Assembly: GCA_044228545.1 (NCBI GenBank)
Contig: JBGAUR010000001.1
Coordinates: 450-64,449, forward strand
Direction: 5' to 3'
From: Minisyncoccia bacterium
GTDB taxonomy: Bacteria; Patescibacteriota; Minisyncoccia; Phycocordibacterales; UBA9973
Length of the DNA: 64,000 bases
Under the pieces are notes generated by a model. The model was not told the origin of the DNA. It did not search any database and saw nothing but the letters and a program-made list of their open reading frames with translations. The translations under genes and the position numbers were made by a program. Position 1 is the first letter of the stretch. Every line of letters begins with the position of its first letter. Positions 25,033 through 30,259 of this stretch are shown here, one piece after another.

Positions 25033-26616
25033 CTATATCTCTATTTGTTTAGGCTTAGGGTTATTGTTTTCACTATTATCCTGAGCACTGCTACAACCTG
25101 GATCACCATCTTTACCACCAAAATCAATCTTTCCATCCCCATCGTTATCAATTAAATCACTACATTGAGGAAGACTATTCGCTTCATTATTATCATTTGG
25201 ATCATAACTTGTATCATTACCAGCATCACCTTCAGTATGACAACCTGGATCAGCTATGTCTATTAAACTATCAGAATCATTATCTGTGCCATCACTACAT
25301 TGTGGATCACCTCCACCACCTGCTGCTTCAAAACATGCAGCTGTTGACCCTCCACCTGATCCTTGGCAAGTCCATGTCCAAGGGCCACTAACTCCACCAG
25401 TTCCACCACCAGGATAGGTACCAGCAACACAATTGAAGTGGGTCGCTGCACACATACCATTTACAATAGTCTCATCCAATACAACCACTGTAGAATTTGC
25501 AGTTGCATTAGTTCCAAAGCCATCACATTGTACAGAGTAAGTTGTTGTAGAAGATAGACTTACATCGACACTTCCGTTTATATTACCGTTAGTATTAAAA
25601 CCAGAACCAGTACAAGAGTCTGCGTTTGTAGAAGACCAAGTCAAAGATGTAATTCCTCCACCATAAGACAATACACTGGGGTTTGCATACAATGTGGCTG
25701 TAGGAGTTTTAGGATTAGATGGAGAAACAGACACATTCACTTGCGACACATCATTAGGATATCCTGTCTTAGTACAGGTAATTGTATATATATGTGTTCC
25801 AGCAGATAGGCCAGATATTACCTCAGAACCACCTAGTGTAGACTTATTTCCACTCCATCCATTTGAGGCTACACAACTATCTGGTGAACCAGTTGTAACC
25901 CAAGAAAGAGTTGTTTGGTCATCAGGAAGAGTCATGGAGCGAGGATTAGCTGATAGTTGAACGGTCATGCCAGATTGTTGAGGAAGTACGGTTATAGTGA
26001 CCTGTGCTTGTGCAGAATTACCAGAACCATCGTCACAAACTACAGTATAAGTTGTTGTTGTTATTAGAGATACGTTATCAATTCCAGATATTGCTCCACC
26101 GGTAGAAAAATCACTACTATTACAAGAAGTTGCGCCGGTAGAAGACCAAGTTAAATTCGCTGATCCTCCTCCATAAGGTAAAGTATACGTATCGGAAGTT
26201 AGATTAGCTGTTACACCGTTTGCAGCAAGAACTTCTATCTGAACTTGGTCTGATGCGTCAGCGAATCCAGTTTTATGACAAGTAATTTCATAAGTATAAG
26301 TACCTATAGAATATAGATCAGTTATTGCTTCATTCCCACTATTTGGAGACTTAGTACCAGTCCACATGCCGTTTGTTGTAGCGTCACAACTATCTGGTGA
26401 ACCAGTTGTAACCCAAGAAAGGGTTGTAGTACTGTTAGGTTGAGTTATTGGTGTTGTTCCAGATAGATCAACTGTTATTGCTGAATTAACAACTTGGTAA
26501 GGTTCATCGTGGTCAATTAATATCCAAGTAGCACTGACTGGTTTTGACACTGAAAACAATAGAACAAACATTAATCCTAGGAGTGCAAATTTATATTTAT
26601 TTAATATTTTTTTCAT
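25033..26616 (-). CDS. Secreted protein with a signal peptide, four Ig-like repeats and an acidic C-terminal C-x-DG-x-DND-x-D calcium-binding-like module
   Basis: N-terminal MKKILNKYKFALLGLMFVLLFSVSKPVSA. The repeats are TTLSWVTTGSPDSC...TYTYEITCHKTG and ANLTWSSTGATSC...TTYTVVCDDG, each present twice. The C-terminus is CSDGTDNDSDSLIDIADPGC...CSDLIDNDGDGKIDFGGKDGDPGC. Confidence 0.55.
   Translation of the reverse strand: MKKILNKYKFALLGLMFVLLFSVSKPVSATWILIDHDEPYQVVNSAITVDLSGTTPITQPNSTTTLSWVTTGSPDSCDATTNGMWTGTKSPNSGNEAITDLYSIGTYTYEITCHKTGFADASDQVQIEVLAANGVTANLTSDTYTLPYGGGSANLTWSSTGATSCNSSDFSTGGAISGIDNVSLITTTTYTVVCDDGSGNSAQAQVTITVLPQQSGMTVQLSANPRSMTLPDDQTTLSWVTTGSPDSCVASNGWSGNKSTLGGSEVISGLSAGTHIYTITCTKTGYPNDVSQVNVSVSPSNPKTPTATLYANPSVLSYGGGITSLTWSSTNADSCTGSGFNTNGNINGSVDVSLSSTTTYSVQCDGFGTNATANSTVVVLDETIVNGMCAATHFNCVAGTYPGGGTGGVSGPWTWTCQGSGGGSTAACFEAAGGGGDPQCSDGTDNDSDSLIDIADPGCHTEGDAGNDTSYDPNDNNEANSLPQCSDLIDNDGDGKIDFGGKDGDPGCSSAQDNSENNNPKPKQIEI
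25873..26421 (-). repeat. Intragenic tandem duplication with a period of about 513 bp (171 aa)
   Basis: The 36-mer ACAACTATCTGGTGAACCAGTTGTAACCCAAGAAAG occurs at 25873 and again at 26386. Confidence 0.5.
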
Positions 26617-26634: not shown

Positions 26635-28047
26635 TTAATTAGGCGCACTATCACCACAACCAACTATTCCTGGCTGACCACCAGAACTATAACAACCCCT
26701 ATAGATAAATGTTCCCCCACAACTACCGATATAAGCAGCTGGGTTATTTTCTGCATATATATCTCCGATTCCACCACAATAACTAGGCATTACATCACCC
26801 CTAGGATCTCCAGGTACAACCAATAAGTGTGTATCTTCATCTATACAAGTTTCATTTGGATCACAAGGTACTTTGTTGTGCACCAGGAATCCATCAGCGT
26901 AGTATGTTCTATCACCAGACAATACAAAGTTATATAGCGGTGTAGTCTCAGGAACATTCTTGCTTTCAATAGAGTTAATAACCTCATTGCCAGATTCTTT
27001 AATAAGAGTATCGCCAACTTCAAGCTTGGTTACACTTATACCAATATGCTCTTGTCTAGTTTTTTCAGGATTTAGTGATTTCCAACCTTGCGTTGTCTTG
27101 AATGGATGTTCTTCGGTAACAAACAGACGCCCTTTGTTAAATCCATATATCTTGCCATCTGATTTTAGTGGACGATGATATGCTAAAACTTCATTATTAG
27201 ACTTTTCTCCTTTTACTACATCCCCAATCTTAACATCTTGAATATTTTTTATTGAACCATCAGCCATTGTTACTTTTGTATCGGAGATAAAACATACGTG
27301 GTACGCATTTGGACCACCAGTAGGTGGAGTACCTGTGGCTCCACAGATATTTCCCCCAGCCATACTTGTAGGACTATTTGAGTGTACGTGACCTTCATAA
27401 AAACCTGCAGTTCCTTCTATTTCACAACCAGTACCATTACATGCTTGACCATTATAATAACTAGTTGACTGGTTTGCTGGGATAGTAAACACAACGATTC
27501 TTGGATCAAGAGGGAGTGGACCGTATTGAGTGGTACCTGTTAATTGAGCGTTAACTGTTATCGCTGGGTGATTAGCTGGTCCAACATAATTTATCTTACC
27601 CCATCGGAAATTACCGGAGAAATATAATGTAGCTATACATGGGGATATTCCAGTATCAACACCAGTTAAATAATTAGCAAAATAGTTTCCAGTTAATGTT
27701 GGTGATTGAAATGGAGTAGAAGCTGGGGGTCCAAAAGGGAATGTCTCATTAAATCCAATATAAGTAGCAGGTATTATTGATACAGGGGTCCCACCATTGT
27801 TGCCCACAGTAAGAGAAACCTGCTCAGTATCGCAGTTGTTAGAAGTTATTTGGCCCTTCGCTAAAAATGTTGTAGCTGTGGTAGTGAAAGGACCAGCAGG
27901 ATCTAGATAAGCAAGTGTTGTTATATTTCCACTTGGTTGACAATTGTATACGTAAGTTGCAGCATCAGCATTTGAATAACTAAAAGCTAATAAAAGAAAT
28001 ACAGATGCTAGTGTTATATATTTAATGTTTTTTAGAAGTTTTTTCAT
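26635..28047 (-). CDS. Secreted protein with a Hint (hedgehog/intein-like, BIL-type) autoprocessing domain and a 79-aa Cys-rich C-terminal peptide. The track start at 28071 is GTG; the ATG at 28047 gives a signal peptide.
   Basis: The Hint domain spans aa 260-399, from CFISDTKVTMADGSIKNIQDVKIGDVV (Cys codon 27292-27294) to FLVHN (26875-26880), followed by KVPCDPNETC...CGGIGDIY...SCGGTFIYRGCYSSGGQPGIVGCGDSAPN. Confidence 0.6.
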   Translation of the reverse strand: MKKLLKNIKYITLASVFLLLAFSYSNADAATYVYNCQPSGNITTLAYLDPAGPFTTTATTFLAKGQITSNNCDTEQVSLTVGNNGGTPVSIIPATYIGFNETFPFGPPASTPFQSPTLTGNYFANYLTGVDTGISPCIATLYFSGNFRWGKINYVGPANHPAITVNAQLTGTTQYGPLPLDPRIVVFTIPANQSTSYYNGQACNGTGCEIEGTAGFYEGHVHSNSPTSMAGGNICGATGTPPTGGPNAYHVCFISDTKVTMADGSIKNIQDVKIGDVVKGEKSNNEVLAYHRPLKSDGKIYGFNKGRLFVTEEHPFKTTQGWKSLNPEKTRQEHIGISVTKLEVGDTLIKESGNEVINSIESKNVPETTPLYNFVLSGDRTYYADGFLVHNKVPCDPNETCIDEDTHLLVVPGDPRGDVMPSYCGGIGDIYAENNPAAYIGSCGGTFIYRGCYSSGGQPGIVGCGDSAPN

Positions 28048-28057
28048 AAGATTATAA

Positions 28058-29344
28058 TTACATATTAACACTATTAATTTTTTTTCTCCTATTCATATAT
28101 ATTCCAAAGGAAGCCACAATAACAAGTACAATTACTCCTAGAATAATAAATTTGCGATCTAAAGTAGGAGTGTAACTCTTAGGAACTTTTGCAGTTTTGA
28201 ATTTAAATTCTTTTTGATCTAAAACTTTACCACTTGGATCACTTAAAACAACCTTAACAAGGGGGTCTTCGCAAGTAGTTTTTACAGGATAAGATATTTT
28301 ATTTATGGGGCTTGATATATCTCGGCTTATTGTCTCTGTATTTTCTTCTATACATTGTCTACCTTTTTTATTAGTAATAGAAGTAGTGAGTGATACGTTA
28401 GAAGCCATACCAGCTGTCATACCCGAACCAAACCATATCAAAGAGAGTTCTGCAGTTTCACCTGTTCTATAATAATCTTTATCGAGAGAAATTTGCTGAA
28501 TGGTAGCACTTAGTCCTTTAATTATATAGTTAAGAGAAACATTGTTAGAAAAATTTACACCGTCAGATAAACTCAACTTTAAATTGTAAGGTTTAGATAT
28601 ATCACCTTTAGGTAGAGTGACTGAAAAAGTTTTTTTCTGACTCTTTTCAAAAATGATTGCTTCGTTTTCTTCAGTTGTCTGTGGAGCAGGTTCTCCATAT
28701 GAGCTAGAATATCGAGTATCGAAGAATGGACTAACCGTTAAAGATTCCATTGAATTATTTATTGCGGTACAAGTAAGACTAAGTGTTTGATCAGAGTTTA
28801 TCTCTACAGTTTTTGTAATTAGATATTTTGTGTCTTTATCTCCTAAAATCTGGACATAACATGACTCAGGTAGTATTTGTATACCCTTAGTAGAAGCGGT
28901 TAACTTTATCTTACCAACAACAACGTTTGCAAATGGAAAACCACTTTCGTTTTTACTATCTAAAAGAATTACAAAGTTACCATTTAGTCCAGACGGTGGA
29001 GTATAAACGATTTCTCTAGAAACAGAACTCTCTGGATGTAGTGTAAGAGCTTCATCATAGACTTTTTCATCAGCCAAATATGGATTCTTCTCATCTGAGA
29101 ATAATTTGATTCCATACTTTACCCCTGTCTGTAAACCTTGACCATTTGCTATTTTAAAGGATATTTTAAAAGTTTTTCCATCTTGAAATACTATTTTTGC
29201 ATTATTTATATCAACTGATGCAACCAGTACACCTTGAGCTTTTGGAAGTTCACTCTTAACTTCTGGAGCAGCACTAGATACTGTATAAAAAAACAAAGAG
29301 AAAAAAACAAAGAAACCAGCAAAGGAAGATTTATATAGATTCAT
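28058..29344 (-). CDS. Surface protein with an N-terminal signal peptide and a C-terminal TM anchor
   Basis: N-terminal MNLYKSSFAGFFVFFSLFFYTVSSA, and C-terminal FIILGVIVLVIVASFGIYMNRRKK. It is the first gene of the secreted-protein operon. Confidence 0.5.
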   Translation of the reverse strand: MNLYKSSFAGFFVFFSLFFYTVSSAAPEVKSELPKAQGVLVASVDINNAKIVFQDGKTFKISFKIANGQGLQTGVKYGIKLFSDEKNPYLADEKVYDEALTLHPESSVSREIVYTPPSGLNGNFVILLDSKNESGFPFANVVVGKIKLTASTKGIQILPESCYVQILGDKDTKYLITKTVEINSDQTLSLTCTAINNSMESLTVSPFFDTRYSSSYGEPAPQTTEENEAIIFEKSQKKTFSVTLPKGDISKPYNLKLSLSDGVNFSNNVSLNYIIKGLSATIQQISLDKDYYRTGETAELSLIWFGSGMTAGMASNVSLTTSITNKKGRQCIEENTETISRDISSPINKISYPVKTTCEDPLVKVVLSDPSGKVLDQKEFKFKTAKVPKSYTPTLDRKFIILGVIVLVIVASFGIYMNRRKKINSVNM

Positions 29345-29494: not shown

Positions 29495-30259
29495 TTACGG
29501 CACTACTTTGTAGTGTATCCGGCGGGTAAATTGTACCCCGCTTGATACATACACCCTCTGCATTACCCATTTGGTATCAGAGAGAAAAATATTGTCGTAT
29601 ATACCGCCGCCATTCTGAAACTGGGCGCCGTTATTCAGCGAATTCCACCAACCAGTGGAGGTGCTTCCGTTGGGAGCAATAGCCGTACCAGACCTTTTAC
29701 CATTCACGATGGTCTTGTAATAGATATACTTATTCTGGTCCGGAGTGCTAACCTGGTAACCGCCGGGGAAAGCTGTAGAAAAAGTGGTGTCACCATTCTC
29801 CAGCCATTTTGAACCATTTTTACAAATGAACGTAAACATGGTGTCATACACAGCGATTGGCACTACTTTTGAAACTAATGCTCCATCTTCACCGGTAAGG
29901 GTGATAGTTGTAGAAGCTGATGTTTCTAAAGCAGGAATACTGGCAGATTTTTTGTCTTCAGCCAAAGCACCGAGTGTAATTTCGGTCTTAGTGGCATATT
30001 GGGTGTTCCAGTTCAACTGGCCAGGTGTTCTTGCCCAGAGGGTGTCCGGGTTCAAAACCGGATTGGATGTAAAGATAGCAGCATTTTTGGGTGGCGGCGG
30101 ACAATCGGCCGAATTTGTTTGTACCCCTGGTAAAAGGGGACATAAATCTACCGGGTCCGATTTTGATGGAGTATCTTTAGTGCAGCTAACCAGAGCTGCA
30201 GCCATTGCGAATGTGATATAGCCCACAAGCAGGCTTCTGATTGCTGTTTTCATGATCAT
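29495..30259 (-). CDS. Lipoprotein (lipobox LVSC) with atypically high GC
   Basis: N-terminal MKTAIRSLLVGYITFAMAAALVSCTKD. The coding sequence is about 48% GC against roughly 33-35% in the flanks. A GC-rich terminator hairpin lies at 29437-29458. Confidence 0.5.
   Translation of the reverse strand: MIMKTAIRSLLVGYITFAMAAALVSCTKDTPSKSDPVDLCPLLPGVQTNSADCPPPPKNAAIFTSNPVLNPDTLWARTPGQLNWNTQYATKTEITLGALAEDKKSASIPALETSASTTITLTGEDGALVSKVVPIAVYDTMFTFICKNGSKWLENGDTTFSTAFPGGYQVSTPDQNKYIYYKTIVNGKRSGTAIAPNGSTSTGWWNSLNNGAQFQNGGGIYDNIFLSDTKWVMQRVYVSSGVQFTRRIHYKVVP

Follow-up and report, generated by a model that had tools for sequence, protein, structure and literature searches.

Type-A bacterial intein-like (BIL) domains are reportedly those described by Amitai et al. 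in 2003 and Dassa et al. in 2004. By definition they end in His-Asn, have no nucleophile at the following (+1) position and belong to bacterial proteins that are not conserved, where they occupy hypervariable regions; they give mainly cleavage products, and splicing is allowed when the freed amine of the C-terminal flank attacks the N-terminal thioester (PMC4031507, PMC7664689, PMC7765530). A BIL from Magnetospirillum has been reported with Tyr at +1 (PMC4031507). Here we analyse a gene that codes for a domain of this kind in a 64,000-nucleotide stretch of DNA from a Minisyncoccia bacterium (contig JBGAUR010000001.1), to which we refer as the window. The gene, which we call the Hint gene (26635..28047 on the minus strand, stop codon included, with an ATG start at 28047), encodes a protein of 470 amino acids (aa). 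In our judgement this is probably a Sec-exported surface protein, the C-terminal half of which would be a cassette made of a self-processing Hint (Hedgehog/intein) domain and a disulfide-rich tail, and which would mature within a conserved surface module.

Both its sequence and its predicted structure show that the window protein carries a genuine, well-conserved BIL-type Hint domain. The domain covers residues 252-391 (140 aa; 26875..27294, minus strand) and is modelled by AlphaFold with a predicted local distance difference test (pLDDT) score above 90. In a phmmer search of the PDB, residues 252-390 align end to end with the BIL2 domain of Tetrahymena (E 2.7e-5), and in Foldseek the Hint model is matched best by BIL2 of Tetrahymena and by the BIL domain of C. 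thermocellum (2lwy). The comparison table gives figures of 17.6 for Tetrahymena BIL2, 15.2 for the C. thermocellum BIL (2lwy), 15.0 for the gp41-1 mini-intein, 13.4 for Hedgehog and 10.8 for Vint, and the domain has the Hint fold by which the HINT superfamily is delimited. The only Pfam family that scores above its gathering cut-off is Vint (PF14623; 31.4 bits against 27). The Hint domain proposed by the first-pass annotation of this DNA is therefore genuine, as the Vint score, the end-to-end BIL2 match and the pLDDT agree.

In spite of its score we tentatively set aside membership in Vint, because the match is restricted to motifs A and B (positions 1-72 of the 166 in the profile); Vint proteins are eukaryotic vWA-Vint proteins (PMC2362128). 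The Pfam family Hint (PF01079) stays below its threshold (19.3 against 29.7 bits), Hom_end_hint gives a weak match that is below threshold as well, and Hint_2 (PF13403) does not match the window protein at all. The AXH matches, again below threshold, fall inside the Hint domain, and we took them for cross-hits on a portion of its fold. Since the domain ends in His-Asn, has no Cys, Ser or Thr at +1 and is found in variable protein regions, we class it as type-A BIL-like by the published feature definition.

The catalytic residues of the domain are intact. Cys252, which is Hint residue 1 and the putative nucleophile for an N-S acyl shift at V251|C252, is encoded at 27292..27294, the block B motif T311-E-E-H314 (TxxH) at 27106..27117, the terminal H390-N391, where Asn cyclisation would cut N391|K392, at 26875..26880, and the +1 residue Lys392, which is not a splicing nucleophile of the Cys/Ser/Thr type, at 26872..26874 (all on the minus strand). 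The open reading frame (ORF) is real, and the Cys and His-Asn codons lie exactly where the first-pass annotation had placed them; its residue numbers for the domain (260-399) fit a reading from an upstream GTG (478 aa) whereas its start at 28047 fits the ATG, which is a harmless mismatch. In an alignment of 73 sequences, H314 is the single fully invariant column, and conservation reaches at least 90% at each of C252, T311, H390 and N391. His-Asn closes 92 of the 101 Hint C-ends in the homologue set, and the residue that follows these 92 is Lys in 74 cases, Ser in 2 and Cys or Thr in none. The genome scan described below shows the same Lys pattern, including proteins that end at HN-K.

To compare the regions of the gene we calculated the ratio of nonsynonymous to synonymous substitutions (dN/dS) between the window gene and its two close homologues. 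The ratio is lowest in the Hint domain (0.04-0.06), followed by the N-terminal domain (0.10-0.14) and the tail (0.10-0.23); as dS is about 1, that is, near saturation, these values are rough, yet the ranking of the regions is still clear. No region shows diversifying selection, and the tail is under purifying selection. By this comparison the Hint domain appears to be functional and not decaying.

The Hint domain is followed by a tail of 79 aa (residues 392-470; 26638..26874, minus strand), which belongs to a type that we call T1. It has six invariant Cys (395, 401, 424, 443, 452 and 464) and 14 Gly; the first-pass annotation had given the length and the richness in Gly correctly, and had counted eight Cys. 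The Cys-rich tails of the close relatives fall into at least four families (T1-T4) that are unrelated to one another, and within each family the pattern of Cys is invariant. When 1.84 billion representative proteins were searched with a T1 tail profile, the matches were Hint proteins and three spurious repeat proteins and nothing else, and the T1 tail is not an independent module that occurs elsewhere. Scanning the four tail types and the N-terminal domain against Pfam assigned no family to any of them (one T4 tail gave a sub-threshold match to Trefoil), and the T1 profile had no match below E 0.1 in the PDB.

Hint and tail behave as one cassette in evolution. In a neighbour-joining tree the Hint domains group by tail type and not by the type of the N-terminal region, with T1, T3 and T4 forming one group each. 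Four unrelated N-terminal families surround a single Hint clade, and two of them, A and B, each occur with both T1 and T2. Furthermore, each tail type has its own flank of 6-8 residues before the Hint domain, after a run of Gly; for T1 this is GGPxAY[YH]V or, more broadly, GGPxxY[YHF]V, which is common to T1-type proteins with unrelated N-terminal regions. The window Hint domain is 72-78% identical to those of T1 proteins with unrelated N-termini, and just 59-61% identical to those of its syntenic orthologues P0004, P0006 and P0014, the N-terminal domains of which are 38-47% identical to that of the window while the tail is T2. Since Hint identity follows the tail, and neither the N-terminal domain nor synteny, we conclude that Hint and tail have been swapped together from one secreted module to another.

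The remainder of the protein is consistent with export. Residues 1-29 are a predicted Sec signal peptide (MKKLLKNIKYITLASVFLLLAFSYSNADA|ATY; 27961..28047, minus strand), a prediction drawn from sequence features and from the AlphaFold model, in which residues 2-21 form a helix. The only hydrophobic segment of the protein lies at its N-terminus (Kyte-Doolittle maximum 2.06, residues 8-22), it is followed by an AxA-like site (...SNADA|ATY) that fits a Sec signal peptide, and there is no further membrane segment; the suggestion that this is a signal-peptide protein thus seems sound. Next come a beta-sandwich domain (residues 30-210, with 5 Cys; 27418..27960, minus strand) and a Gly/Pro/Thr-rich linker (residues 211-251, with 1 Cys; 27295..27417, minus strand; pLDDT below 40) that ends in the N-flank GGPNAYHV. 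In total there are 6 Cys before the Hint domain, a single one inside it (Cys252) and 6 in the tail, a distribution that would permit disulfides within the flanks outside the cell and leave Cys1 free. The start codon is ambiguous: from a GTG at 28071 (ORF 26635..28071, minus strand) the protein would gain 8 residues (478 aa) and the gene would overlap the upstream gene by 14 nt, and an AGGAG lies 13 nt 5' of this GTG, with none before the ATG. An identical public protein of 470 aa on a metagenomic contig of 124.9 kb (P0001) is called from the ATG, and the close homologues P0002 and P0003 are called from the upstream start. This ambiguity is without effect on the finding.

Compared with type-A BIL domains, the window domain has the N-terminal Cys, the TxxH motif and the C-terminal His-Asn without Cys, Ser or Thr at +1, and like them it sits in variable regions of secreted bacterial proteins, so cleavage at both junctions and possibly some ligation by aminolysis would be expected. 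It differs from them in the nearly invariant Lys at +1 of its clade, and in that the members from the Candidate Phyla Radiation (CPR) have an obligatory disulfide-rich tail that starts with KxxC...C[ILV][DN] and is inherited together with the Hint domain. The sequence of events would be as follows. After export and folding, Cys252 would attack the V251-C252 bond in an N-S acyl shift, so that the N-terminal beta-sandwich is held through a thioester, and Asn391 would cyclise to a succinimide and cut N391-K392. Because +1 is Lys, the trans-esterification of canonical inteins is impossible; as with type-A BIL domains, the main products would be the N-terminal domain (about 23 kDa), the Hint domain (about 16 kDa) and the tail (about 8 kDa). 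A minor product might be the N-terminal domain joined to the tail, if the freed amine of Lys392 attacked the thioester. It is chemically plausible that Asn cyclisation sets the tail free, because Cys1, TxxH and His-Asn are kept at both junctions, and we infer surface-protein maturation, release or display as the likely role.

Several points weigh against this interpretation, besides the near-saturated dS mentioned above. The conserved residues would be necessary for activity and are not sufficient for it, and oxidation outside the cell could block Cys1. The argument from the parity of Cys in the flanks fails for the family as a whole, because some T4-type tails have odd numbers of Cys. Neither the tail nor its contact with the Hint domain is well modelled (pLDDT about 50 for the tail in the full-length AlphaFold model); a model of Hint plus tail built with 11 T1-type sequences had a mean pLDDT of 45 and was useless. 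Finally, simple hydrolytic cleavage does not explain the near-invariant Lys at +1 or the proteins that end at HN-K.

We found 93 homologues, and a scan of GTDB species genomes gave 188 relatives. The closest ones, with Hint domains 60-78% identical to that of the window, come from Nomurabacteria, Paceibacteria (dozens of proteins) and other Patescibacteria. Remoter members occur in Gracilibacteria, Peribacteria, SR1, DPANN archaea and Omnitrophota, and also in Bdellovibrionales, Oligoflexia, Micavibrio and alphaproteobacteria (Kiloniellaceae, Rhodospirillales). This large and coherent clade is recognised by an opening CF[IVT]A.T and a closing G[YF]LVHN-K, and three architectures recur in it. 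In CPR members the Hint domain is followed by Cys-rich tails of 60-130 aa, all starting with KxxC...C[ILV][DN]; in many predatory bacteria (Bdellovibrionales, Oligoflexia) a large N-terminal region precedes it and the protein ends exactly at HN-K; and in alphaproteobacteria it stands between a short N-terminus and a long tail rich in Gly, Ser, Asp and Glu. A literature search for Hint domains in Patescibacteria or CPR found no paper, and one on Bdellovibrio Hint domains found nothing beyond surveys of polymorphic toxins; the family is apparently undescribed, although the kind of domain is known.

Some individual members are unusual. Proteins of 300-1000 aa that stop exactly at ...G[YF]LVHN-K are seen in the loci L037, L039, L040, L044 and L048, and further ones in L052, L057, L072, L076 and L084 (Bdellovibrionales, Oligoflexia, Micavibrio and some alphaproteobacteria). 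A metagenome-assembled genome of Omnitrophota (L046, 6001-7355) contains four tandem paralogous Hint proteins with a conserved tail of about 30 aa that ends in ...DDICVTNGTGC, and in these the +1 residue is T, P, A or V and not Lys. In Mucilaginibacter angelicae (L035, 6001-7794 and beyond) a giant ORF holds at least five tandem Hint domains of the clade, joined by linkers of the form K-G-G-(G/S/D)-S-C, so that the next Cys1 comes almost directly after each HN-K. Several Hint copies of the candidate division SR1 genome RAAC1_SR1_1 (L034) have in-frame TGA codons at Gly positions (e.g. *YLVHN), which fits the SR1 code, where UGA is Gly; translation with table 11 breaks these genes.

The Hint gene sits between nusA (divergent; window 30542) and the tuf-S10 ribosomal operon, and the order nusA, g254, g428, Hint gene, g527, tuf is found in the window and in the loci L003, L005, L009 and L089. 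The locus is a conserved slot of the core genome and not an island. The two flanking genes are as the first-pass annotation had described them, and closely spaced (gaps of 10 and 18 nt between g428, the Hint gene and g527). The gene g428 (28058..29344, minus strand) encodes a protein with a predicted signal peptide, an ectodomain of about 370 aa, a C-terminal membrane anchor and an RRKK tail, for which we were not able to find any match in Pfam, NCBIfam, PADLOC or the PDB. Its homologues adjoin Hint genes with T1, T2 or T4-like tails in at least seven distinct loci. In two relatives, P0007 (L010, about 353-2686) and P0025, a complete g428 homologue and the Hint protein form one in-frame ORF (777 and 786 aa) that retains the g428 anchor as well as the signal-peptide-like segment of the Hint protein. 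Such a fusion, of the Rosetta-stone type, links the two genes that are adjacent in the window; a point on the other side is that these ORFs may simply have lost a stop codon recently and need not be selected fusions. We propose that the Hint protein would act with the membrane-anchored g428 and the repeat protein g527 in a surface module between nusA and tuf.

The life of CPR bacteria is spent in attachment to other cells, and to our knowledge their surface proteins are almost all unannotated. With its predicted BIL-type self-processing, the conserved module beside nusA and tuf (g428, the Hint protein and g527) gains a concrete biochemistry that can be tested.

The first-pass annotation had gone further and taken the tail for a toxin or a bacteriocin-like peptide. 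In polymorphic toxins, Hint domains have been proposed to release a C-terminal toxin (PMC3113570), and here the Hint domain would free a variable Cys-rich peptide that acts as a toxin, a bacteriocin or a host-interaction effector, while the N-terminal part delivers or displays it. The arrangement resembles that of PT-HINT domains (PF07591, type-B BIL; found in polymorphic toxin, CDI and MafB systems), in which a Hint domain lies directly 5' of a variable C-terminal module in a secreted protein. As anticipated, the C-termini after the conserved Hint domain do vary between related genomes, with four or more unrelated types behind near-identical Hint domains and even T2 instead of T1 in the same syntenic slot; the conserved His-Asn suggests that the tail can be severed, and the tail is the fastest-evolving region of the mature protein. 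However, the PT-HINT profile reaches only 16.8 bits (cut-off 27.7), over profile positions 76-136 (its C-terminal part), and type-B domains lack block G, whereas the window domain has the His-Asn. No toxin domain was found: the tails match no toxin or bacteriocin family in Pfam or the PDB, and apart from a trivial match to a homing-endonuclease N-motif, PADLOC reported no defence system among the four genes. There is no small immunity-like gene after the Hint gene, as the downstream gene encodes the conserved secreted repeat protein of 527 aa, and a check of the window and of 89 loci revealed no orphan tail cassette. The purifying selection on the tail and the conserved core slot speak against a toxin as well. 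Moreover, the N-terminal modules vary no less than the tails do, and the Hint domain co-evolves with the tail; a system that delivers variable toxins by a conserved module would show the opposite. Because many relatives stop at HN-K without any cargo, the family-wide function cannot be the delivery of a C-terminal cargo, and simple cargo release does not account for these proteins. Thus the Hint autoprocessing domain of the first-pass interpretation stands and the toxin role finds no support; we regard the latter as a minority possibility, and a rather improbable one.

The Lys at +1 leads to another family of explanations, in which the thioester is resolved by an amine or hydroxyl, as in Hog or BUBL domains, so that the N-terminal domain is linked to a component of the envelope, to g428 or to Lys392, and the tail recognises the adduct or the partner. 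Like Hedgehog/Hog proteins, the window protein has a signal peptide, and the family has diverse N-terminal cargo, a Hint domain with Cys1 and TxxH, and a C-terminal region of about 60-120 aa (60-125 aa in the parallel with Hog; PMC2362128, PMC7765530), with the N-terminal domain as the likely released product. The closest solved structure, Tetrahymena thermophila BIL2 of a BUBL protein (6tmm, 6y75), shares Cys1 and the terminal Asn, and it uses the epsilon-amine of a Lys in its C-terminal flank to resolve the thioester into an isopeptide (PMC8616854); by analogy, Lys392 might play this nucleophilic role. Also in line with such a transfer are the near-invariance of the +1 Lys even where it is the last residue, the membrane-anchored g428, a conserved neighbour of the Hint protein that in two relatives is part of the same ORF, and the fact that the T1 tail is never seen without a Hint domain. 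On the other hand, Hedgehog-type Hint domains, including those of Hog, lack the terminal His-Asn that is conserved here, and the Hog C-terminal region (the sterol or adduct recognition region, SRR/ARR) is not cut off and has no similarity to the disulfide-rich tails of the window family. BIL2 in turn is eukaryotic and cytoplasmic, lies between ubiquitin-like domains and is only about 25% identical to the window domain, which belongs to a secreted bacterial protein with a beta-sandwich before it and a Cys-rich region behind it. Some members have no tail, so the common function cannot depend on a recognition region, the acceptor is hypothetical, and the evidence fits hydrolysis and aminolysis alike. 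We therefore hold a transfer of this general kind to be unlikely. Within it, we give slightly less credence to the specific idea that the +1 Lys serves as an inbuilt acceptor in a BUBL-type reaction that is prokaryotic and extracellular, in which the N-terminal domain would be transferred through its C-terminus to the amine of a lysine; that this acceptor is Lys392, or else a lysine of g428 or of the cell wall, is a suggestion just as tentative. Given the conserved Lys and the lysine chemistry of BIL2, ligation or anchoring is nevertheless the most interesting reading that is still open. If it is true, the product would be rejoined covalently or anchored to the surface without sortase or ATP, and a widespread clade (CPR, DPANN, Bdellovibrionales, alphaproteobacteria) would possess a self-contained ligation or anchoring cassette and not a simple self-protease. 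Such a compact extracellular ligation module would be of biotechnological interest; otherwise the family is a routine addition to the BIL domains. We have little faith in a Hint domain that is dead or never fires and only gives structure or spacing to an ordinary adhesin, which the tail would cap permanently as a structural part: Cys1 could indeed be oxidised outside the cell, and tail and Hint always occur together and co-evolve, as in a single structural unit, but Cys1, TxxH and the terminal His-Asn are conserved across phyla, no other region of the gene is as constrained as the Hint domain, and a structural role alone would not need Cys1 or Asn at the exact ends of the domain. A true mobile intein that interrupts a host protein, which the first-pass annotation had already dismissed, can be rejected almost with certainty. 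The Hint fold, the intein blocks A, B, F and G and the size of a mini-intein would agree with it; however, +1 is Lys and not Cys, Ser or Thr, the domain of 140 aa contains no homing endonuclease, the flanks are unrelated between homologues so that no conserved extein is interrupted, and the protein is secreted.

Among the other genes of the locus, g527 (25033..26616, minus strand) encodes a secreted repeat protein of 527 aa with acidic double-disulfide repeats at its C-terminus, which scores 41.8 bits against NF033662 of NCBIfam (cut-off 41). It is conserved in the syntenic loci (62% identity), and its orthologue in L003 has a PKD-like domain. The repeats, of the form CSDGxDNDxDxLIDxxDPGC, occupy the C-terminal 100 aa or so of g527, and the same repeat stands directly before the Hint cassette in P0005. 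As a repeat of the NF033662 type thus occurs in both proteins, the same building blocks appear to be shuffled among these surface proteins.

On the other side of g428 lies g254 (29495..30259, minus strand; 254 aa), which has a lipobox-like N-terminus (LVSC) and is conserved in the syntenic loci. It is probably transcribed separately from the three genes that follow it. Between g254 and g428 there is a terminator-like hairpin (29459-29436, minus strand; 10 bp with GC, then a run of T), and a promoter-like site (30413-30385, minus strand; TTGACA-17-TATACT, 11/12 matches) lies 5' of g254; shuffling the sequence does not lower the number of such sites below that counted here.

A T3 locus and P0012 are also found beside nusA, with other secreted neighbours. 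In several Paceibacteria lineages (L012, 2964-7076; L007; L008), genes for Hint cassettes with mixed tails are clustered with genes for secreted proteins, divergent from nusA. The site beside nusA may be favoured for surface-protein genes. Finally, within the S10 operon of the window a diacylglycerol kinase gene (PF01219; 20267-20677, minus strand) is placed between rplB (L2) and rpsS (S19), and the same placement is seen in a related genome (coordinates given as L001 17389-17781 and L003 14745-15158).

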